Origin: Escherichia phage 235Ecol030PP
Sequence record: PP355091.1
Length of the DNA stretch: 64,000 nt
Strand: one strand, 5' to 3'
A program made the position numbers and the translations under genes. The notes under the pieces were generated by a model. It was not told the origin of the DNA and did not search any database. It saw nothing but the letters and a program-made list of their open reading frames with translations. Shown one piece after another: positions 1 to 44,470 of the stretch; the first letter of the stretch is position 1, and each line of letters opens with the position of its first letter.

Positions 1-11
1 AATTTTCCTTA

Positions 12-2189
12 TTAGGCCGCAAGGGCCTTCATAGTTTTAGCGATTTGGGAAACTTCATCATCACTTAAAGAACTGCGATATCCGATGAAGTCGGAAACAA
101 TACGGAATTTCTTGGTAAACTCAGCAACCATTTTATCACTGTTTTTTGAAGCATTATTTGATAATACATCAAAAAGATTAGTTACTGTCCAGATGTCATG
201 ACCAATGGTATCTTTTCCACCATTAAAATATACACCGCGCAATGAACTAACTATATTAGCGAGTCGTGTATATTCTTCAGAAACTTCATCTGTACTGAAG
301 TACTTCATCATAAAATCTAGTTCAGGATACTTGATAATTTTATCAATATATCGTTGAGCTGAACTTGAATAACCTACATACTTATCATAATCTACATCAT
401 CAAAAGCATCTACATATAAATCACGCAAAGCTTCAAAAATACATTGGCACTGACCGAGTTCTTTTACCTTTTTCTGCAAAAGCGGACGAATAACATAAAA
501 TTCATTAATGCCAATAAGATTAGCCATACGAATCAAAATATTCATAGATGGATGACAAAGAGATGTAGTACCATCCATAGAGAAAATATCAGAACGATGC
601 ATATACGCTACATACCCAGTAATTTCATCTGCTTCTGATGTAAGCGTAAATAATTCCTCTTTTTCCCAGCGCCCGTCTTTAATTTCAAACTTAAATGCTG
701 TAGCAGCTTTAGGACGAGGAGCTTTACTTTTAACTACCTTTGGAATATAGCTTTTAACTAAAGCTTCAATTTCTGACAAATAATGAATGTTAACTTCATC
801 ACTTTCAAACATTGCCATAATATCAGGAAGCAAATCAATCTGCGATTCTACTTCTGGGTTAATAAACAGAAGACGCTCATTGTGATGAATATTCAAAGTG
901 TTATTAAATTCACTATCATCTAACGCATGTGCTAATCCACGGACAATATTAACACGATTTTTAATATTATCAATAACGATATTAATTTTTGTTGTATTAA
1001 TACCAAACAGACGATAACTTGATGCAACGGCTGAAGTTTCATGACTTTGCTTAATGCGCTTCAGTCGAGGGTCAAGATTTACTTCATACACAACCCCTGC
1101 ATTACATAACTTACTGTCAGGTTCAAACATGCTCTGCATCTTTTTATATGACAGATTTTTAGTCGTGAATTTGACTGAATTGCTAATCATATAATCTCGA
1201 GCAGAATACCCCATCTTCATCAATTCACGATATGTGTGACGAGGAGATGTAGATTCTTTAAATCGTTTTACATCTTCATTAAATGCTTTCTCACTAAGCT
1301 CTTTAACTCGTTCAATAATATTTTTACGAGTACGATCATCCAGTGAAAGAGCTTCACGTGATGGAGCAATATCAAGTGAACCCATTGGAAACTTAATGTA
1401 ATTCACTTCATTGCGAATGCTTAGCCAGTTACGGTCTCTAATAACACCATCGATAGGATAAACAATACCGCCGTAGATAGCATATAATCCGCCACGATCA
1501 GGCCAGTATCTTTCTGGATTTACACCATAATAATCATCAAAATCCGGAAAATAATCAATTTCGCGGTCAAGACCATTAATGATAGCCAAATCTTTGAACG
1601 GTCGCATGATATAAGAAACTTCATAAGCAAAGTTTCTAAAGTCTTTTTCTTCAACTGGAACTACGATTTCAATACCAGTTTTATCATCTGGACCCATTTC
1701 TTTTACGAATGTAGGTTTAATCTGTGGACCATCACCATCCATGTAAGCTACATAACCACGAATTTCACCTTTATGATACGAAGTAATACTAAACGTATCA
1801 GTATAACTAAACGGAGATTTAGAACCTAAACCAAATCCGCCAATGAAATCGTTAGATTCAGCCTTAGATGAACTGAAGTATGAATTATACAACCCAGGAG
1901 AATTATCATCACCCTGAATATCAAAATCACTCATACCCGGACCAAAATCTCGGCAAACAAATCGTGGATCTAAACGTCCAGGAACTTGTATGATAAATTT
2001 TTCAGGATTTCCATTGAGAGCATGGGCATCAATCATGTTGGTAATTAATTCACGGACTACTGCGCGAATCTTGTTTGTATACAAATCAGATGATAGAATT
2101 TTAAATACTTTAGGAGATGCTGTGATGCTAAATGCTTTTGATTTAGAACCATTACCAAGAATTGTTTCTTTTTCAGTGGTGATAATCAT
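12..2189 (-). CDS. rIIA: rIIA-like protein, 725 aa
   Basis: 725-aa ORF with GHKL/Bergerat-like N-terminal segment ([10 protein letters not shown]); size and position next to topoisomerase gene match T-even rIIA; recalled, not searched. Confidence 0.85.
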
Positions 2190-2199
2190 AATTTCCTCA

Positions 2200-2403
2200 T
2201 TAATTCATATTGCGTTTAATAACTTCAGCAACTTCTAGTAGTTCATCTTTAGTTGCGGTGTCGGATTGAATTTTATCTCTAATATCTTTAAAGCGGTTTT
2301 TAAATTCTTCGGCTTCTCCCATATCGAAAAAGCGTTGAATGATTCTATATTCTCGATGAACTGCTTTATCAAAAAGTTCTAAATTTACTTTATATGATTT
2401 CAT
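2200..2403 (-). CDS. hypothetical protein, 67 aa (positional equivalent of rIIA.1)
   Basis: compact ORF between topoisomerase gene and rIIA, downstream of an early promoter. Confidence 0.55.
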
Positions 2404-2428
2404 TTCAATATCCTCATTTGCCCAATTA

Positions 2429-2458
2429 ATTATACCACATCCTTGTGGTAAAGTAAAC
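2429..2458 (-). promoter_or_regulatory. T4-type early promoter (GTTTAC -35, TGnTATAAT -10)
   Basis: minus strand GTTTAC-18nt-TATAAT with TGG extension. Confidence 0.7.
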
Positions 2459-4278
2459 TACTGGCTCATCCATTCTTTACGAAGGTCAGCATTATCTCCC
2501 ATGAGCATTTCAAAAAGCTCTTTCCAGTTCTCAGGAAGTTTAACAACATCATATACTGGGTTTTGAATCATCTCACGATATTCAGATTTTTCCAAAGAGC
2601 CAAGTCCCTTAATATAACGGATGCTATGTTTAGGTAGAGTATCTTTGGCACTCTCATATTCAGCGACTGTATAAAACCATTCTTGTTTTTTACCGACCTG
2701 AGCGATGATTACAGGAGTTTTGACAAAGCGAATTCGTCCTTGCTCAAACAATTCTGGCCAATTACTAAAAAATCCGAGCAGAGAAGGATAAATGCTTCCT
2801 AGACCATCATGGTCAGCATCAGTCATAATAGCGATATTATGATAATTCAAGTTTTCAGCTTTTTCACCAAGAACTAGACCAGTTATTGCGCAAATATCAA
2901 ACAGTTCTTTGTTTTTAAGCATATCTGCATAAGACATACCCCAACTGTTGAGAACTTTACCACGTAATGGATAACCACCGTGAAGTTCTTTATCACGAAC
3001 ATCAATAAGATATCCGATAGCCGAATCACCCTCAGTCAAGAAAAGAGTAGTGTCAGCATCTTTACCACAAAGATTCGCTTTAATATGTTTATGAACCTTA
3101 GCTTTAGAAGCCTTTTTAGCCGCTTTAGTTTCTGCTGCTTTTTCTGCCGCCAATTTACGAGCTAATGCTGCTTCAATAATCGGCATTAAAATTGCTTCAT
3201 TATTTAGAATAGCACGTGAAATCTTTTTAGCATCAAGTTGAATATGACTACGGATTTCACCAAATGGAGAAGTCAAACGCTCTTTAGTTTGAGAATCAAA
3301 TCGCATGTTTTTCATATCACGAACAAACATAACGATAGTCAAACATTCTTTGACACGCGCTTTAGTTACATCAATTTTGAATTTACGTTTGATTTGTGGA
3401 ATAAGGTCTTCACAAATATCATCCATAACACAGTCAATGTGATGGCCACCATTCTTAGTGTGAATGTTATTCACATAAGTTAATTGACGAAAACCATCCG
3501 GTGAACGACCAACCGCAATAGAACAATTTTCTTGTTCTTGAACGATAGCATGTTCATCATACTGTCGTGCATATTTCTTAAAATTGCCCTGAACCTTTTT
3601 ACCATTAAAGGTAAATTGAATATCAGGATAAACTACTGCAAGTGTCTGGAGACGATCCAGTGTAATGTCAAGATAAACTTGGGACAGCTCATTAGTTTCA
3701 AATGACATAAAATCTGGAATGAAAGTAACACGAGTTCCTTTCCATTTTCCAGGAATAGTTTCCCAGGATTTATTTTCCATGCCATTTGAACAACGAACTA
3801 CAATATTATTTTGACCATCGCCAGTTTCACCAACAAACATCACAGAAAAAATGTTTGTCAAACTAGAACCAACACCATTCATACCGCCAGTGACGCGTTC
3901 TTTATCATCACCGAAGTTACCACCTGCTTTTGGAATAGTCCATGCAGCAACAGGACCAGGAATTTCTTCACCGGTAGGTGTTTTAACCATCGCCTGTGGA
4001 ATACCACGACCGTTATCTTCAACTGTTACTTGATTGTTTTTAATAGTAACATTAATTTTATTTGCGAATTTAAACTTAGTACGAATACCTTCATCTACTG
4101 AGTTATCGATAATTTCATCAATAAGCTTAACAAGACCAGGTACATACTGAACACTTTCCCATTTACCAAACAGAAAGCGCTCATGCATTTCATTAGCAGA
4201 AGAGCCAATGTACATGCCGCTACGCTTTTTGATATGTTCAATATCGCTCAGAATTTTAATTTCATTCTTAATCATCAC
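2458..4278 (-). CDS. 39: DNA topoisomerase II large subunit (GyrB-like ATPase + Toprim), unsplit 606 aa
   Basis: KRSGMYIGS ATPase N-terminus, GHKL motifs, Toprim LTEGDSA and DxD (TDADHDG); continuous ORF, no internal stop or bypass gap. Confidence 0.9.
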   Translation of the reverse strand: MMIKNEIKILSDIEHIKKRSGMYIGSSANEMHERFLFGKWESVQYVPGLVKLIDEIIDNSVDEGIRTKFKFANKINVTIKNNQVTVEDNGRGIPQAMVKTPTGEEIPGPVAAWTIPKAGGNFGDDKERVTGGMNGVGSSLTNIFSVMFVGETGDGQNNIVVRCSNGMENKSWETIPGKWKGTRVTFIPDFMSFETNELSQVYLDITLDRLQTLAVVYPDIQFTFNGKKVQGNFKKYARQYDEHAIVQEQENCSIAVGRSPDGFRQLTYVNNIHTKNGGHHIDCVMDDICEDLIPQIKRKFKIDVTKARVKECLTIVMFVRDMKNMRFDSQTKERLTSPFGEIRSHIQLDAKKISRAILNNEAILMPIIEAALARKLAAEKAAETKAAKKASKAKVHKHIKANLCGKDADTTLFLTEGDSAIGYLIDVRDKELHGGYPLRGKVLNSWGMSYADMLKNKELFDICAITGLVLGEKAENLNYHNIAIMTDADHDGLGSIYPSLLGFFSNWPELFEQGRIRFVKTPVIIAQVGKKQEWFYTVAEYESAKDTLPKHSIRYIKGLGSLEKSEYREMIQNPVYDVVKLPENWKELFEMLMGDNADLRKEWMSQ

Positions 4279-4330
4279 TTATCCTCGTTTGGTTTCGGGA
4301 ATATTATACTCCGGTAATCATAAAGTTAAA

Positions 4331-14500: not shown

Positions 14501-14525
14501 AAAAAAAGGACTCCCGAAGGAGTCC
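14501..14525 (-). terminator. rho-independent terminator after soc
   Basis: GGACUCC-UUCG-GGAGUCC hairpin followed by U7 on the minus-strand RNA. Confidence 0.7.
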
Positions 14526-14533
14526 TTGAATTA

Positions 14534-14770
14534 TTAACCACCTATTGATGTAGGCGTAAACATTGCAGCATTCTTAGTTTTCCAAGTTGCTGCATCGGAA
14601 ACTACATCAGAATATGCTGCCTTTTCAGAAGGAAAGGTCTGATAATGAGAATCTGCAATACGATGCTCGTTAGAATAGATTTCAAATGGAACAGAAACTT
14701 CCATACCTTTAACTTCTTTGCCTTCACCCGCTGGATGAGTAAAGGTCTTGATGTTAACGAAACCACCCAT
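14534..14770 (-). CDS. soc: small outer capsid protein Soc (RB69-like variant), 78 aa
   Basis: MGGFVNIKTF...HYQTFPSEKAAY matches Soc family; late promoter TATAAATA upstream; terminator downstream. Confidence 0.8.
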   Translation of the reverse strand: MGGFVNIKTFTHPAGEGKEVKGMEVSVPFEIYSNEHRIADSHYQTFPSEKAAYSDVVSDAATWKTKNAAMFTPTSIGG

Positions 14771-14809: not shown

Positions 14810-14951
14810 ACTTACAATTTAGCGGCTTTCCAGAGTTGTTCAATAATCTCTTGGTCTATTTCTTTAGTTATTTCATTACGTAATAAAGCAGTAAGGGCTT
14901 TCGCCCTTTTCTTATTCAACTTTTTGAGTTGGCGTTTATTTAAACGGGACA

Positions 14952-15470
14952 TTAATAACCTCGGTCTTGACGTGCGAAATTTTCAGCATTTTTCAGATAA
15001 TAAAGTTTAAAGATTTCTTCTGCTGTAAGACCAAGACCCTGGAACATATTCAGAACGAAATGAAGAATATCAATCATTTCGAATTTAATTTCCAACTGGT
15101 CTTGTGGAGACAAATCAGTAATCAGAGTTTCACGTCGTTCACCATGTTGTGCCTTCCACGGCTTCCATACACTGCTGGCGGCTTTTTCACCATTGCTCAT
15201 ACCACCAAGTGAAGTCAGCAGTTCACGGAATTCATCATCAATATAATCTTTCTGATTACGCAGCCAATCAACAACATCACCAGCAGTGGCCAATTCATCA
15301 GGATGTTTGTTATGTTTAGGCTTGTCATTTGCCAGACGAACCTGTAGAGATTTCTGCATGTCAAGCATTACCTGCAGCGGGTCTTTTTCATCACCGAGAA
15401 TATCCCAATATTCATTTTGAGCTTTATCAGCGCCTTCGATCAGATGACTACATTCGTTGAAATGTGGCAT
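14952..15470 (-). CDS. 56: dCTP pyrophosphatase (MazG-like), 172 aa
   Basis: size and position between soc and primase region; MazG-like helical fold assumed; recalled T4 gp56 ~171 aa. Confidence 0.7.
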   Translation of the reverse strand: MPHFNECSHLIEGADKAQNEYWDILGDEKDPLQVMLDMQKSLQVRLANDKPKHNKHPDELATAGDVVDWLRNQKDYIDDEFRELLTSLGGMSNGEKAASSVWKPWKAQHGERRETLITDLSPQDQLEIKFEMIDILHFVLNMFQGLGLTAEEIFKLYYLKNAENFARQDRGY

Positions 15471-15471
15471 G

Positions 15472-16122
15472 TTATTTTTCCTTTCTTATGAAGTTTTCTA
15501 TCATATGTCTATAGCAGATATTAGGATAACCTGCCTTGACAGCTATTTTATTAAATTTTGTGCGCTTAGGTCTATTATTATAAACCCACAACTCGTAAAG
15601 CGAATCATACGAATTCCATATCTCACCACGTCTTGGATTCGGTAAACCATATCGAGGTGAATTTTTACCGCTAAATCTTCCTTTTCGGGCTTTACTCATA
15701 TTAGCCTTGGCTTCATCGGATATAATTTTACCTTTATGAGCTAGACGCATTTTAGCCTTAGTTTCTTCAGGTGTTTTTAACCCCTTTATCCACGATGGTT
15801 TTCCAAACCTTGGATTATTTTCACCCGAGAAAAGAGCAGAGTTTTGGATTTTAAGAGTTTCTATTAATCTACTTGTTAATTTAACACCTTTATTATATCG
15901 CATTAAATTTACAGCATAATGCAATCCTCTCACATCTGGATATATTTTAGTTAATAATCTATGAGCTATAAAATGCTCACGCGCAGTTAACTCAACAAGA
16001 TTGTTTTTGCCATCTTCTCCTCCCATACATCTAGGAATTATATGATGGCGTTCTTTATATCCGCCAAGATTCCGGCATTTAGCTTTTGTAATTAAAGCCG
16101 AGTAAATTTTTTGGTAATTCAC
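15472..16122 (-). CDS. HNH (His-Me finger) homing endonuclease with NUMOD3-like repeats, 216 aa, GTG start
   Basis: motif ERHHIIP...N...EHFIAH; basic GK/KG repeats; C-terminal helix-turn-helix-like tail also seen in the other endonuclease ORFs in this window. Confidence 0.7.
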   Translation of the reverse strand: MNYQKIYSALITKAKCRNLGGYKERHHIIPRCMGGEDGKNNLVELTAREHFIAHRLLTKIYPDVRGLHYAVNLMRYNKGVKLTSRLIETLKIQNSALFSGENNPRFGKPSWIKGLKTPEETKAKMRLAHKGKIISDEAKANMSKARKGRFSGKNSPRYGLPNPRRGEIWNSYDSLYELWVYNNRPKRTKFNKIAVKAGYPNICYRHMIENFIRKEK

Positions 16123-16155
16123 ATATATCCTTTCAATTCATGGGTTAGTAGATTA

Positions 16156-16179
16156 ATTATACAATAAATATATAAAGCA
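16156..16179 (-). promoter_or_regulatory. MotA-box middle promoter candidate (TGCTTTA-11nt-TATAAT) upstream of the HNH gene and gene 56
   Basis: minus-strand TGCTTTA followed 11 nt later by TATAAT. Confidence 0.5.
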
Positions 16180-16192
16180 ATAAGGAGGATAT

Positions 16193-16393
16193 ATGGTACA
16201 AAAATTAATGGCACTTGTTAATGCCATCAAAGGTAATAAAAAGCGTATAGCTTTTACTATTTCTGCTATGGTAGGAATTTTACTCTGGAACTTTATTTTA
16301 TCACCTGTTGCTATTGCTCATGGCGTTAGTATTCCAGTAGTTACTCTTGATACATTCGTAGATTTAGCATTTGCTTTAGTTGGGTTAATTTAA
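16193..16393 (+). CDS. plus-strand small hydrophobic protein, 66 aa (putative 2-TM membrane peptide)
   Basis: strong SD AAGGAGG 4 nt before ATG; hydrophobic segments; lone plus-strand ORF in a minus-strand region. Confidence 0.4.
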   Translation: MVQKLMALVNAIKGNKKRIAFTISAMVGILLWNFILSPVAIAHGVSIPVVTLDTFVDLAFALVGLI

Positions 16394-17418
16394 ATCTTAG
16401 CATATTTAGATAGCCGCATTTTAGCCATTAACCCCTGGGCAATATTATTTTTCATATATTCCATAATTTGTTCAGGGGTTGCACCTTCCTTTCTAATCAT
16501 ATCATTAACATCTTTTGATTTCCAGGGAGATTTATCCCAAAACATAACCCTTTCTCCTGCATCAACTAATTTAGTCATTCGCTTAATAGTGTCAGGATGA
16601 CGAGGTTCATTATCTAAAACCCACACTCGTCTATCTTTAAATGGAACAACTTCTAGGTCTAATTGACCACCCGTAATAGCTATACCATTTTCAATAAAAA
16701 GTGAATCTATAGGTCCTTCTAGAACATATACATCGCCATCTTTAACTCGTTCGACTCCATAGATTTTTGTTGCTTCAGGATAAGCTTTGATGGTGATATA
16801 TTTTTGAGGAGCATCTTTCTTTAATGCACGTCCTTGAAAAGACTCAGCTTTTCCATTAGCATTATAAATTGGAATAACAAGACGAGGCTCAGAAATTTCC
16901 TTTTTATATGTTCCCGGTGCTATGCTATTAACCAATTTAGGCCATTCGGTTGTAAACCAAAGATATTTCCATTTATCCTTTGGAATACAACGAGCTTTTA
17001 CGTATTTTATAATTGGATGGTCTTCCGCCAATTTATCTAATCTAACGCATGACGGAAGAGATTTAATTATTTTCTTTTCAGGTTGTTTAGGAAGTTCTTT
17101 AGGTTTTTCTACTGGACGACTTTTACCTTTTTCTTTTCTTATTTCAAAGATATACTCACGATATAAATCAGGTTCAAACTCCTTTAAATATATTCCGATT
17201 GGTGCATGATAATTACAGTTATAACAATGAATATTTCCTTCATTATTATCACCATAATACCATCCACGGGCTTTATTTTGGTCGGTTTTTGAATCTCCAC
17301 ACACTGGGCATCTAAACCGTAATTTAAAAGTTGAACTATTATTTACTTGTGTGAATTTAGGTAAATGAGCTAATGCACGGTATGCAAACTCATTATCAAT
17401 CCAAGGTATTGATGACAT
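16390..17418 (-). CDS. 61: DNA primase (zinc ribbon + Toprim), 342 aa
   Basis: CPVCGD...CYNC zinc ribbon, Toprim acidic motifs; size matches gp61. Confidence 0.9.
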   Translation of the reverse strand: MSSIPWIDNEFAYRALAHLPKFTQVNNSSTFKLRFRCPVCGDSKTDQNKARGWYYGDNNEGNIHCYNCNYHAPIGIYLKEFEPDLYREYIFEIRKEKGKSRPVEKPKELPKQPEKKIIKSLPSCVRLDKLAEDHPIIKYVKARCIPKDKWKYLWFTTEWPKLVNSIAPGTYKKEISEPRLVIPIYNANGKAESFQGRALKKDAPQKYITIKAYPEATKIYGVERVKDGDVYVLEGPIDSLFIENGIAITGGQLDLEVVPFKDRRVWVLDNEPRHPDTIKRMTKLVDAGERVMFWDKSPWKSKDVNDMIRKEGATPEQIMEYMKNNIAQGLMAKMRLSKYAKI

Positions 17419-17586: not shown

Positions 17587-18213
17587 TTAACCTCTATTCA
17601 TAAAAGCATTAAAAATTTGGTCATCAATAGAAACATTTGCTTTAGACTGTTTTTCGGATGGTAATTCATATCCACATATTACAATTTTATGATCAATATC
17701 AAAATACACAGAAGCAATATGATTAATGCTGTTTTCAGTAAAGTCTAAATCAACATCAATATCTTTTTGACCACAGCCCAAAGGATAAATAATGCGAGTA
17801 ATTCGATTATCTTTAACAAAGATTCCACCGACATACTCTGTGCTGCGTTTAAAGTCTACACGCCGACGAAATGAAAAATATTCAGGCTCTTTATGAGCTC
17901 GGCTCATAGGGCATAACGAATAACTAGAATAAGAGATGTCAAATCCTACGCCTTCAATATGAACTAAATTGTCATGATTAAACCAATTATAATCATATGC
18001 CAAGTCCATTAGATTGTCATATGTGAAAGGCACCGGATTAACATCATTGGTCACAAGCATATAATTAGCAACTGCTATAATTTCATTATTTTTAACGAAT
18101 ACAAACCGTGATTGATGCGAATGGCCTGGACCTGCGTTTTCACGATTAATGATATAACACTGGGCACCTTTATATTTGTATGTATCTTTGCACTTGTGCA
18201 TTTGATAAAGCAT
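17587..18213 (-). CDS. hypothetical protein, 208 aa (position of T4 61.2)
   Basis: ORF; its first 39 codons and 5' leader are duplicated in tandem upstream. Confidence 0.7.
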   Translation of the reverse strand: MLYQMHKCKDTYKYKGAQCYIINRENAGPGHSHQSRFVFVKNNEIIAVANYMLVTNDVNPVPFTYDNLMDLAYDYNWFNHDNLVHIEGVGFDISYSSYSLCPMSRAHKEPEYFSFRRRVDFKRSTEYVGGIFVKDNRITRIIYPLGCGQKDIDVDLDFTENSINHIASVYFDIDHKIVICGYELPSEKQSKANVSIDDQIFNAFMNRG

Positions 18214-18377
18214 TATTCACCTACCACTTCAGCGATCGAATACAAACCGTGATTGATGCGAATGGCCTGGACCTGCGTTTTCACGATTAATGATATAACA
18301 CTGGGCACCTTTATATTTGTATGTATCTTTGCACTTGTGCATTTGATAAAGCATTATTCACCTACCACTTCAGCGAT
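18096..18377. repeat. perfect tandem direct repeat, 2 x 141 bp (18096-18236 and 18237-18377)
   Basis: the two copies are identical base-for-base on inspection. Confidence 0.95.
18238..18354 (-). pseudogene. truncated duplicate of the 5' end of the 208-aa gene (41-codon reading frame)
   Basis: inside repeat copy 2; ATG overlaps the stop of the spackle-like gene; frame closes after 41 codons at the repeat junction. Confidence 0.6.
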
Positions 18378-22165: not shown

Positions 22166-22843
22166 TTATAGTAGTGTTCTTGTTCCACGAAATACTTCGA
22201 GCATTCTTGCATAAGATTTATTTGGAAATCCAGCTTCAATTGCTAATTTTTTAAGCTTAATAGCACCGGGTTTTCCAGAGTTTTCCCATATTTCTTTAAT
22301 CTTTTCAATGTTATCCCACATTATTGGGTCACGTTTATGTGATGGTTTATTTCTATTATAACCATATGGATTATTAAGCAAAGCTTCTTTTCGTTTTGCT
22401 TTAGTTTCTTCTGACTGCTTTTTGCCTAGCTGGGCTTTCCGGCAAACATCACTAAATCCAAGATGTTTTGGTTTTCCTTTTTGAGCTTTTGAAATTTTTT
22501 CTTTGGTTTCTGATGAAACTCTATAACCAATTCTTCTACCACCCTCTCCACCAATTTTTAAATTATAAGTCATAGGATCATTTACCACATCTATTGTTAC
22601 TAATTCTCTTTCAGCATCACGGGCTGATTTAAAATCTTTATAAAACCCAAGAATGCTTAAATTAAAATTTTTCTTACCATACTTTTTCTTGGCTTGTGCT
22701 AATAAAGTTCCTGACCCCATATAACCATCATTTAAATCATCGGTTGAATGAGTTCCATAGTAAATTTTATTATTAACTAAATTAGTTATAACATAAGTAT
22801 AATTATATTTCTTTTCTTTATGTCTTTTCATGTCATTAATCAA
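22166..22843 (-). CDS. GIY-YIG homing endonuclease (Seg-like), 225 aa
   Basis: N-terminal YVITN...KIYYGTH (GIY-YIG), basic NUMOD-like repeats, C-terminal DNA-binding tail. Confidence 0.75.
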   Translation of the reverse strand: MINDMKRHKEKKYNYTYVITNLVNNKIYYGTHSTDDLNDGYMGSGTLLAQAKKKYGKKNFNLSILGFYKDFKSARDAERELVTIDVVNDPMTYNLKIGGEGGRRIGYRVSSETKEKISKAQKGKPKHLGFSDVCRKAQLGKKQSEETKAKRKEALLNNPYGYNRNKPSHKRDPIMWDNIEKIKEIWENSGKPGAIKLKKLAIEAGFPNKSYARMLEVFRGTRTLL

Positions 22844-40839: not shown

Positions 40840-41310
40840 TTAATCATGTTTCCACACCCCATCGGTATTTGACCAAAGTCGCTGATTATCTGATCCTCGC
40901 CACAGCTTTTTAGTCGGAAGATTTTTCTCATACTTCCCATCAATAATAACATCAACATATTTAAGCATTTCTAGTTGTTTAATATCTTCAAACTTATATC
41001 CTGTCCACAACCAAATGCTTTTATTTGGATAAAGATTTTTTACTGTTTGAACAATGCAATGAATAACATCTCGATTATCAGGATAGAGAGGGTCACCTCC
41101 GGTTATAGTCAATCCTTCTATATAATCATTATTCAAACATTCAATTAATTGTTCTAGTGTTTCACCAGTGAATGGAATACCATTTCTAGCATTCCATGTT
41201 GATTTATTATAACACCCTTCGCATTTATGCAAACAACCTGTAACGAAAAGAACTGTCCTGCATCCAGGGCCATTCACAAAGCAGCACGGGTATATTCTGT
41301 CATAATTCAT
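40840..41310 (-). CDS. nrdG: anaerobic RNR activating protein (radical SAM), 156 aa
   Basis: CxxxCxxC cluster (CLHKCEGCYN), size 156 aa. Confidence 0.85.
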   Translation of the reverse strand: MNYDRIYPCCFVNGPGCRTVLFVTGCLHKCEGCYNKSTWNARNGIPFTGETLEQLIECLNNDYIEGLTITGGDPLYPDNRDVIHCIVQTVKNLYPNKSIWLWTGYKFEDIKQLEMLKYVDVIIDGKYEKNLPTKKLWRGSDNQRLWSNTDGVWKHD

Positions 41311-42139
41311 TTATATATTTCCAATTATAGCCTTCAACACTTTTACGTTCGCCATTTAAACATTTTAAAATATTTCCTTTGCTAGAAATATTAAAATATT
41401 TTGCTGCGTCTGGTATATAATTAAATGTTTTTAAAAGAACACCATCTTTATATGCGCCAAATAAATTAAGAGTATATTTTTCTCGAAGACGTTGATGTTT
41501 CCTTTTCATAACCTCAGGATTTGCATACGCCAACCTCAATGAATTTCTATGTTTTTCTTTTACTTCAGGTTTTTGCATTGCTAACTTAGTTAGCCTGGAA
41601 ATTTTATTTCTAACTTCGTCAGTTTTCATTGCATTTGACAAATTTAATAAAGTTTTATTTCTAACTTCAGGTTTTTGCATTGCTAACTTAGTTAGTTCTC
41701 TATGTCTTTTTCTAAAATCGTCATCCTTCCATATATTTTTCGATAATTTTGACATAGAGCGGTGAAATAATTCCTTTTCACCGGAATACAATTTAAGAAT
41801 TTCATCCAATTCATCTGTATTAAATCTATCGGTATTCGAGTTTATCATTCTATGAAAGGCATAACACATTTTACTATTACTTGTTTTAGCTAAATAGTAA
41901 TGAGCTAACGCGTGGTCATAATATGACAAATTAACAATATTCCATTTATCTGTTTTATATTCAGGAAATATAGATTTGGGAAGCACGTGATGTGCTTCCG
42001 TTTTTCCTTTTATTTTAGGATTATTATAATTTTTTGTTATCAAATCAACATATGACAATAGTAAATCATTATTTTCTTCAAATATTAAAGATAATTTATC
42101 ATTCACAAAATCGCAAGGATAAAATCTATCATAATTCAT
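41300..42139 (-). CDS. HNH homing endonuclease (Mob-like), 279 aa, with NUMOD3 repeats
   Basis: AHHVLP...N...DHALAH HNH motif; duplicated LTKLAMQKPEV units; first 13 codons mimic the nrdG N-terminus. Confidence 0.75.
   Translation of the reverse strand: MNYDRFYPCDFVNDKLSLIFEENNDLLLSYVDLITKNYNNPKIKGKTEAHHVLPKSIFPEYKTDKWNIVNLSYYDHALAHYYLAKTSNSKMCYAFHRMINSNTDRFNTDELDEILKLYSGEKELFHRSMSKLSKNIWKDDDFRKRHRELTKLAMQKPEVRNKTLLNLSNAMKTDEVRNKISRLTKLAMQKPEVKEKHRNSLRLAYANPEVMKRKHQRLREKYTLNLFGAYKDGVLLKTFNYIPDAAKYFNISSKGNILKCLNGERKSVEGYNWKYINEL
41566..41700. repeat. direct repeat of ~27 nt within the HNH gene (NUMOD3 repeat units)
   Basis: aggtttttgcattgctaacttagttag occurs twice about 103 nt apart. Confidence 0.8.
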
Positions 42140-43441
42140 TGGTGTTTAACCCTATGCATGATTTCTTTATTTTTACCGAGATTAAATCCGCGTTCGTTCG
42201 GGTTTCCAAGATATCCGCATGTTCTTCTTATGGTGTTCATCTTTTTAGGATCAGTTTCTCCACAAATAGAACAAACAAATCCGTTTTCAGTAGGAGTCAT
42301 TTCATGGGTACTTCCACATGTAAAACATTTATCTACTGGCATATTAACACCAAAATAATCTAAATGCTGTGCAGCATAATCCCATACGGCCTCAAGACCT
42401 TTTAGGTTATTTTTCATATCAGGAAGTTCAACATAAGAAATGTGACCACCTGTCGCAATGAAATGATATGGGGCTTCGCGAGAAATCTTTTCAAACGGAG
42501 TAATATTTTCTTCTACTGAAACATGGAAACTGTTAGTGTACCAGCCTTTATCAGTAACATCTTTTACACTTCCATATTTTTCTGTATCAAGTTTACAGAA
42601 GCGATAACAAAGGTTTTCAGCAGGAGTCGAATACAAACTAAAAGCAAACCCAGTTCTTTCAGTCCACTGTTTAAGACGAGCATTCATTTTAGTTAAAATT
42701 TCTTGTCCAATATCACGACCGACAAGAATATTCAATTCATGAATACCAATGTATCCTAAAGACACTGAACTTCTGCCATTTTTAAATAACTCAATTATAT
42801 CGTCATCAGGTTTAAGACGAACCCCGAATGCACCTTCTTGGTAAAGAATAGGAGCAACAGTCGCTTTAACTCCTTTTAAGGAACTAATTCTACACATCAA
42901 TGCTTCAAAACATAAATCCATTCGTTCATTGAACAATTCAACAAATTTCTGTTCATTGAACTGTGTTCCAATATAAGAATCTAACGCAATACGAGGAAGA
43001 TTCAATGTTACAACGCCAAGATTATTACGTCCATCAAGAATTTCATTACCAGTCGAATCTTTCCATACGCTCAAGAAACTACGGCAACCCATTGGAGAAA
43101 CAGGAATAGATGAACCGGTGATAGCTTTATTGTTCTTAGCTGAAATAATATCAGGATACATTCTTTTGCTTGCACACTTTAGAGCAAGCTGCTTAATATC
43201 ATAGTTCGGATCGTCTTTGTAAAGATTAACGCCTTCTTCGACGAACATAACAAGCTTAGGGAAAATAGGAGTTATCCCATCACGACCAAGACCTTTAATA
43301 CGATTTTTCAGAATTGCTTTCTGAATCATTCGTTCAGTCCAGTCAGTTCCCGTACCAAATGTAATTGTTACAAAAGGAGTCTGTCCGTTTGAACTGAAAA
43401 GTGTATTTACTTCATCATTATATTCAGCATGAGTCGCAAAT
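42136..43441 (-). CDS. nrdD: anaerobic ribonucleotide reductase NrdD, exon 2 (boundary approximate)
   Basis: C-terminal glycyl radical motif RRTCGYLG and CxxC zinc ribbon; 5' limit set by the upstream endonuclease stop. Confidence 0.8.
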
Positions 43442-44470
43442 TCATGCTCGTTTATATGAAACAACAAAATTTGGATAGTCCATAGATATGCAACGTTCTT
43501 TTATAGTGCTAGGATGAAAATTTAGCGCTTTAGCTGCTTCTATATAAGACGTATACTTAATACCGTCAACAACCACATATTCAGGAACTTTATGAATAGT
43601 AGTCTTAATACTCAAAACAAGAGGATGAGTTTCGACTTCACTTTCAGTGCAATTTAAATATTCCGCTGCTTTTTTAAAACTTCTAAAAGTTTTATTTTTA
43701 AGCTTTATCGATACTTGTTTTTTACTTTTTCGACTATTGATATTATTTTGCACATGTTCCTTAGATCTTCCGTTTTTAGCATAATATTCAGCTACAGAAG
43801 ATTTTATATTGTTTTTATGAGATTCGGATAACACTTTACCCTTATGAGCATCTCTTAATTTTTGAATATGTTCTTCAGTATCCGGATGCTTATAAAACTT
43901 TTTACCGCCTATGGATTTATTTAAACATTTTTTGCTATAAAAATATTTACGTATGACCTCTTCTTCATGTTTTAATGCATCTTTATAACTATCAAATGTT
44001 TTTAAAATTATCCATTTAGTAGGTGTATCAGTTTTTAAGCGTTCATTTATATACTTAGATGACGTTGTGTAAGTTTTCCAGTTTGTGGGCTTGTTTTTAA
44101 TTGTTCTAAATTTTTTATAACCGATATAAATGTCGCCATTAGAAAACTTAACTAAGTATGTAAATGCGTCTTTATCTTTTATTTTAGTACAACGTCTTTT
44201 TATCCATTTCATTGTTTCACCTCGTATTCATAAGATAATCTTATTTATACAAGATGACTGCTGCATGTCGCCATGCAGATTAGACTATATCTTCATCTTT
44301 CGATGCCGGCCGTTTCGAATAGCATTAGCTTCTATTCTACACCGCTACATTCATCACGGTTAGTCGTTAGGCATTTAGTTCAAAAGAACATTTAGCACGG
44401 GATTGTCTACTAGAGAGGTTCCCCGTTTAGACCGGTTTTACATGAGCCTGAATTAAATTAACTCATACGC
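43431..44470 (-). mobile_element. group I intron in nrdD carrying a GIY-YIG endonuclease ORF (boundaries approximate)
   Basis: nrdD frame interrupted; conserved group I core strings (AAGATATAGTC S-element-like, AAACGGGGAAC) at 44213-44452. Confidence 0.75.
43442..44212 (-). CDS. intron-encoded GIY-YIG homing endonuclease (I-TevII-like), 256 aa
   Basis: GDIYIGYKK GIY-YIG motif; located inside the nrdD intron. Confidence 0.75.
   Translation of the reverse strand: MKWIKRRCTKIKDKDAFTYLVKFSNGDIYIGYKKFRTIKNKPTNWKTYTTSSKYINERLKTDTPTKWIILKTFDSYKDALKHEEEVIRKYFYSKKCLNKSIGGKKFYKHPDTEEHIQKLRDAHKGKVLSESHKNNIKSSVAEYYAKNGRSKEHVQNNINSRKSKKQVSIKLKNKTFRSFKKAAEYLNCTESEVETHPLVLSIKTTIHKVPEYVVVDGIKYTSYIEAAKALNFHPSTIKERCISMDYPNFVVSYKRA

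Follow-up and report, generated by a model that had tools for sequence, protein, structure and literature searches.

What kind of gene lies between primase and gene 56 in this phage, and how did it come to be there? The DNA analysed here (the window) is a stretch of 64,000 nucleotides from Escherichia phage 235Ecol030PP (PP355091.1), a T4-like (Tequatrovirus) segment beginning close to rIIA; the records closest to it match at about 96% over 25 kb, and none is identical. On its minus strand, the primase gene 61 (16390..17418) is followed by an ORF of 216 codons (15472..16122 in the ORF list), by gene 56, coding for the dCTPase/dUTPase (14952..15470; Pfam dUTPase_2, 74% amino acid identity to T4 gp56), and by soc (14534..14770). 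The ORF starts with GTG (16120-16122), with the Shine-Dalgarno sequence GAAAGGA 5 nt 5' of it, and stops with TAA (15472-15474), a single base (15471) away from the ATG of gene 56 (15468-15470). The original prediction had described a GTG-initiated HNH homing endonuclease gene in this position, its stop abutting gene 56 and soc beyond, and the coordinates agree with that description. It had also proposed that the gene replaced segF, the endonuclease gene of T4 on the other side of gene 56, a proposal that fared less well.

The match of the ORF to PHROG 655, 'homing endonuclease' (E 8.6e-59), and the 2984 homologues of its product recovered by database search (best E 6e-133) indicate that it is not a chance ORF. 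The closest record to the window copy is 96.5% identical in nucleotide sequence, and an identical copy occurs in no record. At the amino acid level, orthologues in GRNsp7, SSE1 and Klebsiella 15882-6-1 share 92.6-97.2% identity with the window protein (tblastn), and that of VR5 shares 78%. Annotated orthologues are found in fPS-90 (g031c), GRNsp7, IME537 (gp142), Klebsiella Jiaodavirus phages and VR5 (mobE), all of them between genes 61 and 56, and most of the 58 matching records label the gene 'homing endonuclease', 'HNH endonuclease' or 'mobE'. In the literature searched, no paper characterising an HNH gene at the 56-61 slot, or any of the orthologues by experiment, was found, nor were cleavage or inheritance data for the enzyme. 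The NCBIfam search with the protein gave no match, Pfam detected no GIY-YIG domain in it, and a PDB search with the single sequence returned nothing significant, the matches to HNH and I-TevI coming from the family profile only. A role in a defence system was also considered and rejected, as no PADLOC defence model matches the protein; the 'HEase' (homing endonuclease) model alone does, at residues 125-211. The ORF is an ordinary, well-supported member of a known family that is already annotated in related phage records, and it is a free-standing homing endonuclease gene rather than a core gene.

The sequence shows a protein built of three parts. The nuclease domain spans residues 1 to ~100, with an HNH catalytic core (beta-beta-alpha-metal) at residues 24-54 (15961..16053, minus strand) that comprises E24, H26, H27, P30, G35, N41, E49, H50 and H54 and contains the motif ERHHIIPRCMGG...NNLVELTAREHFIAH. 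Alignments of 56 and 63 family members gave the invariant columns Y3, E24, H26, H27, P30, G35, N41, E49, H50, H54 and L57, all of which are kept in the window protein, so that the predicted His-Me finger is present with its catalytic residues intact. The family profile matched the HNH motifs of EcoKMcrA (E 1.4e-3) and of a group II intron maturase (E 4.5e-3), its stretch 'YkE-HHIIP..GG.D...NLV.L...EH' being in register with both. In the AF2 model, strands at residues 24-27 and 42-45 are followed by a helix at 47-60, with a pLDDT of 93-95 there and above 90 for residues 1-70. Structure searches with this model added nothing on the protein; Foldseek with the whole model found weak HNH-domain matches only (Cas8-HNH, probability 0.87, E 0.55). 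The Pfam HNH model (PF01844) scored the isolated N-terminal domain below its cut-off (16.5 versus 21.4 bits), and the full-length protein had no Pfam HNH match at E <= 0.01; evidently, the Mob subfamily is too divergent for this model. Motif register and predicted fold place the protein in the HNH (His-Me finger) nuclease superfamily, and metal-dependent nicking or cleavage of DNA is predicted for it.

Downstream of the nuclease domain, residues ~99-164 (15631..15828, minus strand) form a NUMOD3-type region with two G-x-N-x-P-R-[FY]-G motifs and two basic helices. NUMOD3-like repeats had been suspected here, and the protein passed the curated cut-off of Pfam NUMOD3 (PF07460) with 28 versus 20.4 bits. 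Over the same region, the family profile matched the solved DNA-binding domain of I-TevI (1I3J; E 4e-4), and the DNA contains a direct repeat of 34 nt (15673-15706 and 15724-15757). Whereas I-TevI is intron-encoded and a GIY-YIG enzyme, the window gene is intergenic and of the HNH type; what they have in common is a beads-on-a-string architecture, in which a nuclease domain is joined to small DNA-binding modules (PMC2988022). The last part, at residues ~165-216 (15475..15630, minus strand), is a helical module to which Pfam assigns no family and for which the AF2 model has a low pLDDT of about 50-55. Related modules occur in a GIY-YIG ORF of the window (33% over 87 residues, E 2e-10) and in the second HNH protein of phage fPS-2 (47% over 48 residues); judged from these matches, the module is shuffled among homing endonucleases. 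Of the C-terminal DNA-binding tail that had been predicted, the module is thus real and its binding of DNA is presumed. The GIY-YIG ORF itself (22166-22843, minus strand) codes for a SegA-like homing endonuclease with NUMOD3 repeats and a TTG start as listed, and lies just upstream of uvsX.

The closest characterised relative is T4 MobE, whose residues 1-81 align with the N terminus of the window protein at 63% identity over 82 positions (E 4e-33). Both genes are free-standing and sporadic among relatives, and both are promoterless and co-transcribed from an upstream promoter. They differ in location, mobE lying between nrdA and nrdB and the window gene upstream of gene 56, and in size: MobE, with 141 residues, has neither the NUMOD3 repeats nor the C-terminal module, and the similarity stops at about residue 82. 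In addition, the window gene starts with GTG, and no terminator was detected inside it of the kind found in mobE, which has an internal terminator-like hairpin, and in segF. Taken together, we consider it highly probable that the ORF encodes a free-standing T4 Mob (MobE-like) HNH homing endonuclease that spreads by homing.

Many homing endonuclease genes of T4 are defunct, I-TevIII being an example, and the gene might likewise be a relic that once homed, no longer cuts, and persists through its linkage to gene 56 and ordinary recombination. A few phages with alleles that look like footprints of the gene (described below) suggest that loss does occur, and one IMG/VR contig (L042) holds a copy truncated at its 5' end. 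On the other hand, the full-length frame and the GTG start are preserved in all five orthologues compared, every invariant catalytic residue is kept, and pairwise dN/dS among the five is 0.06-0.14, that is, about 0.1 over dS values of up to 0.44. These ratios indicate that the protein is under purifying selection and maintained, and together with the intact frames they make a relic quite improbable. The contig with the truncated copy (IMGVR_UViG_2974741249_000001, about 1-4300) is an oddity in itself: the locus is scrambled, with gp61 in several pieces and two partial copies of gene 56; the HNH copy (82% amino acid identity, with ~16 N-terminal residues missing) lies directly behind a gp61 fragment; and a second HNH gene of the fPS-2 type is also carried. 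The arrangement may reflect the decay or rearrangement of an endonuclease hot spot, or an assembly error.

How is the gene expressed? A MotA-type middle promoter is predicted from the sequence at 16156..16180 on the minus strand (TTGCTTTA, 11 nt, TATAAT). A 'predicted middle promoter' is annotated at the homologous position in fPS-2, and the same promoter sequence stands directly 5' of gene 56 in empty phages such as wV7. From its position, this promoter would drive the HNH gene, gene 56, a 46-codon ORF (orf46) and soc, and the probable end of the transcription unit is an intrinsic-terminator-like hairpin with a T-run 3' of soc (14506..14527, minus strand), where fPS-2 has an annotated terminator as well. 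The 181-nt gap between soc and gene 56 indeed has no segF, as had been noted, but it is not bare, since it includes orf46 (14812..14952, minus strand; phrog_14392), which is conserved. A scan for sigma-70 consensus sequences gave weak matches inside the HNH ORF, the region being no richer in them than the shuffled control, and there was no evidence of RNA structure hiding the ribosome-binding site of the HNH gene or of gene 56 (z-scores -0.37 and +0.32). As read from the sequence, the HNH gene is a promoterless cassette of 651 nt that rides the 56-soc operon, a pattern known for mobE, segF and others (PMC2988022).

The ribosome-binding site of the HNH gene (GAAAGGA, 16128..16134, minus strand) is that of gene 56 in phages without the gene, and the ribosome-binding site of gene 56 in the window (15479..15485) is rebuilt by the last HNH codons, AGA AAG GAA AAA TAA C ATG (RKEK-stop); GAAAGGA at 15479-15485 is a direct repeat of 16128-16134. 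The HNH gene relies on this captured site and starts at GTG, and its end recreates the site of its neighbour. At the start itself, GGATATATGTGAAT (16117-16124, minus strand) contains an out-of-frame ATG-TGA two bases ahead of the GTG frame, a minimal ORF that may be meaningless or may dampen translation. Further upstream, a terminator-like hairpin with a T-run after gene 61 (16205-16230) falls inside a plus-strand ORF of 66 codons (orf66; 16193-16393, phrog_2024). This hydrophobic ORF is convergent with gene 61 and overlaps its end, is conserved at 94-97% amino acid identity in Tequatrovirus and at about 50% in other genera, and has a homologue in T4 (L001, 4739-4936) that is unannotated in the T4 RefSeq record.

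The boundaries of the insertion can be drawn by comparison with wV7, relative to which the window has a net insertion of 651 nt between the leader and the ATG of gene 56, genes 56 and 61 both being intact. The sequence 5' of the HNH gene matches the wV7 gene 56 leader exactly, up to GAAAGGA (16128-16134), and the same junction on that side, gaattgaaagga|tat(a/c)tGTG, recurs in the window, GRNsp7 and fPS-2 (all three without dam), in IME537 (with dam) and in the Jiaodavirus-type Klebsiella phage Mexia. Between the window and Mexia, whose gp61 and gp56 are 61% and 73% identical to those of the window at the amino acid level, nucleotide identity is 93-100% only across ~15427-16138, with 30-70% in the flanks. 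This block of ~712 nt comprises the HNH ORF with its ribosome-binding site, and it reaches ~44 nt into gene 56 (15427..15470, minus strand); the high identity to Mexia ends there, and we regard these ~44 nt as a co-converted flank. With a dS of 0.23-0.44 between Tequatrovirus and Jiaodavirus copies of the HNH gene, the transfer across genera was not recent.

Whether this gene is part of the common inheritance of these phages can be judged from its frequency. A search with the 3.2-kb locus matched 769 phage records, which serve as the base for the counts below, and the HNH gene is present at >90% nucleotide identity in 55 of them: 33 from Escherichia, Yersinia, Salmonella, Shigella and one Pseudomonas-labelled phage, and 22 from Klebsiella phages. 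The gene is thus a minority state and not the common ancestral one, and the prediction of an HNH homing endonuclease at a variable site beside gene 56 is borne out. About 33 of ~750 Tequatrovirus records (~4%) carry it, dam is present in 183 records, and the junction is uninterrupted, as in wV7, in 294; so low a presence beside so many empty junctions means that the gene is dispensable. Klebsiella Jiaodavirus phages have it at the same point with 93% nucleotide identity, the Dhakavirus VR5 has the 78% relative annotated mobE in the same slot with an ATG start, and in a metagenomic T4-like contig a 55% relative lies directly upstream of a dUTPase_2 gene.

The same records bear on the proposed swap, in which the HNH gene would have displaced segF at a single hot spot for homing endonucleases. 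The proposal has some appeal, given that the window lacks segF (a T4 SegF query finds nothing in it) and has the HNH gene, and that both elements abut gene 56. SegF resembles the window HNH protein further in being free-standing and embedded in the 56-soc transcription unit, and it targets gene 56, which the HNH enzyme, by analogy, probably also uses as target and homology arm. However, SegF is a GIY-YIG enzyme, and the two genes lie on opposite sides of gene 56. In T4, the order is gene 61, the orf66 homologue, dam, gene 56, segF and soc, so that the T4 counterpart of the 56-61 slot is dam; the layout given in the original prediction had segF correctly between gene 56 and soc, but left out dam. 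No match to T4 Dam was found in the 64-kb window either. What the window lacks at this slot relative to T4 is therefore dam, which 183 records possess, and not segF. Moreover, other phages show every combination. Mexia has the HNH gene, gene 56, a SegF homologue (83% amino acid identity to T4 SegF) and soc; fPS-2 has the HNH gene, gene 56, a different HNH gene of 278 codons and soc; wV7 (61, orf66, 56, orf46, soc) has both slots empty; GRNsp7 has the same order as the window; and IME537 has gene 61, orf66, an ORF of 186 codons, dam, the HNH gene and gene 56. (The 186-aa ORF adjoins dam both in IME537 and in locus L008.) Gene 56 is flanked by two separate landing sites that vary independently, with both, either or neither occupied. 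Because of this independence the swap fails as an account of the locus, and we regard it as the least credible of the readings weighed here.

The linkage to the HNH gene extends into the 5' end of gene 56. Among Tequatrovirus loci, the sites that co-vary with the presence of the HNH gene are nt 4, 6, 7, 9 and 12 of gene 56 and an extra 'AC' before its ATG. The contrast is ATGCCACATTTC against ATGGCTTACTTT; all five loci with the gene have the former, and close loci without it read ATGGC(T/A)(T/C)ACTTT. The exceptions are three contigs that have the HNH-type flank but not the gene. One of them, L010, carries dam; the other two, L025 and L026, resemble Jiaodavirus. Alleles of the L010 and L025 types read TTGAAAGGAAAAATAA(C/T)ATGCCACATTTC. 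A search of IMG/VR for exact junction patterns found no HNH-bearing junction of the window clade and only these three alleles. They may be what was left when the HNH gene was lost through a deletion between the two GAAAGGA repeats (footprints), or they may be the native sequence of the donor lineage; the alleles fit the gain-and-loss cycle of homing elements. Given these two readings, an interpretation of the linked substitutions as immunity changes is not secure, and they may instead be a donor-lineage flank; the Pro2 (CCA) allele of gene 56 is likewise present in L024, L025 and L026, which lack the HNH gene. A longer co-conversion tract within gene 56 was also considered and discarded, since phages with the HNH gene are mosaic beyond about nt 24 and share no longer haplotype. 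Farther into gene 56, at nt ~100-300 (15170-15370), the window has a run of variants absent from the eight other Tequatrovirus loci compared, which points to another patch of recombination, from a donor not yet sampled.

By analogy with MobE, MobA and SegF, the element would spread as follows. In a cell co-infected by a relative without the gene, the enzyme would nick or cut the naive allele within the 5' part of gene 56, within its leader or close by. Recombination-dependent repair from the carrier genome would then copy the HNH gene together with a short stretch of flank. Such copying would give the element super-Mendelian spread, with neighbouring markers dragged along. There is a precedent in MobE of T4: it nicks T2 nrdB on the non-coding strand, and its gene is inherited preferentially (PMC2790892). 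The shortness of the shared flank suggests a cleavage target near the insertion point; nonetheless, free-standing T4 endonucleases often cut hundreds of base pairs from their own genes (PMC2988022), which makes a short co-conversion tract a weak guide to the position of the target.

One feature of the region could give this placement a particular meaning. In the T4 RefSeq record, the replication origin oriA lies at nt 23 of gene 56 and is primed by the gene 56 transcript; the homologous base in the window is 15448. The HNH cassette, 651 nt long, stands between the middle promoter and this point, and the tract that travels with the cassette covers it. The element might conceivably be aimed at oriA, a prospect that we rate as slim. 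Were the enzyme a nickase like MobE, its nick would lie beside an origin and the first fork would turn it into a double-strand break, which would explain how homing can be set off by HNH enzymes that only nick. Another possibility is that the insertion changes how the origin is used in phages that carry it.

The vicinity of oriA is also one of the arguments for a different view, namely that the nuclease has been domesticated or serves several purposes, and is kept for the exclusion of competitors, for DNA processing near the origin or for the regulation of gene 56. The strong purifying selection on the gene and its position within the operon, where it separates gene 56 from the promoter, would suit such a role, and sequence alone cannot separate homing from domestication (PMC10448857). 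Nonetheless, a gene found in only ~4% of Tequatrovirus records, and missing from the 294 with an empty junction, is dispensable; PADLOC offers a 'homing endonuclease' model and no other; and block-like transfer across genera is typical of a selfish element. Domestication therefore seems improbable to us, though somewhat less so than a relic or an element directed at oriA, and spread of a MobE-like enzyme by homing is the reading that we favour.

Other endonuclease genes were seen in the window and its relatives. A free-standing HNH-type endonuclease of 279 residues (41300-42139, minus strand), with sub-threshold I-HmuI NUMOD-like and NUMOD1 matches, is 42% identical over 105 residues to the second HNH protein of fPS-2. 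It lies directly downstream of an ORF of 443 codons (42136..43467), which from its sequence we take to be nrdD-like. In contig L037, a 38% relative with the same C-terminal module (829-1419) is located between 61.1 and 61, and Klebsiella phage 5N has a homing endonuclease gene upstream of gene 61 (L053, 3445-3651) that is different from that of the window. With such genes on the far side of gene 61 as well, the whole 61-56-soc stretch is rich in endonucleases. Elsewhere in the window, a perfect (100%) tandem duplication of 141 nt (18096-18377) takes in the leader of the gene 61.2 homologue together with the 5' end of that gene, and yields a truncated second copy of 41 codons (18229..18354) of the N terminus of ORF 17587..18213; it is either very recent or an assembly artefact.

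As its orthologues are already annotated as homing endonucleases, the identity of the gene adds little that is new. The locus is nevertheless a clean natural case of intronless homing, in which a cassette of 651 nt is accompanied by a short co-converted flank in an essential gene of nucleotide metabolism, and the element has been transferred across three genera of Tevenvirinae and has apparently left footprint alleles after its loss. A Mob enzyme whose target is probably close to its own gene would be convenient for studying gene conversion by HNH nickases. Finally, gp56 varies between 69 and 95% amino acid identity among phages whose primases are 98-100% identical, and the presence of two independent endonuclease landing sites on either side of gene 56 helps to explain this mosaicism.
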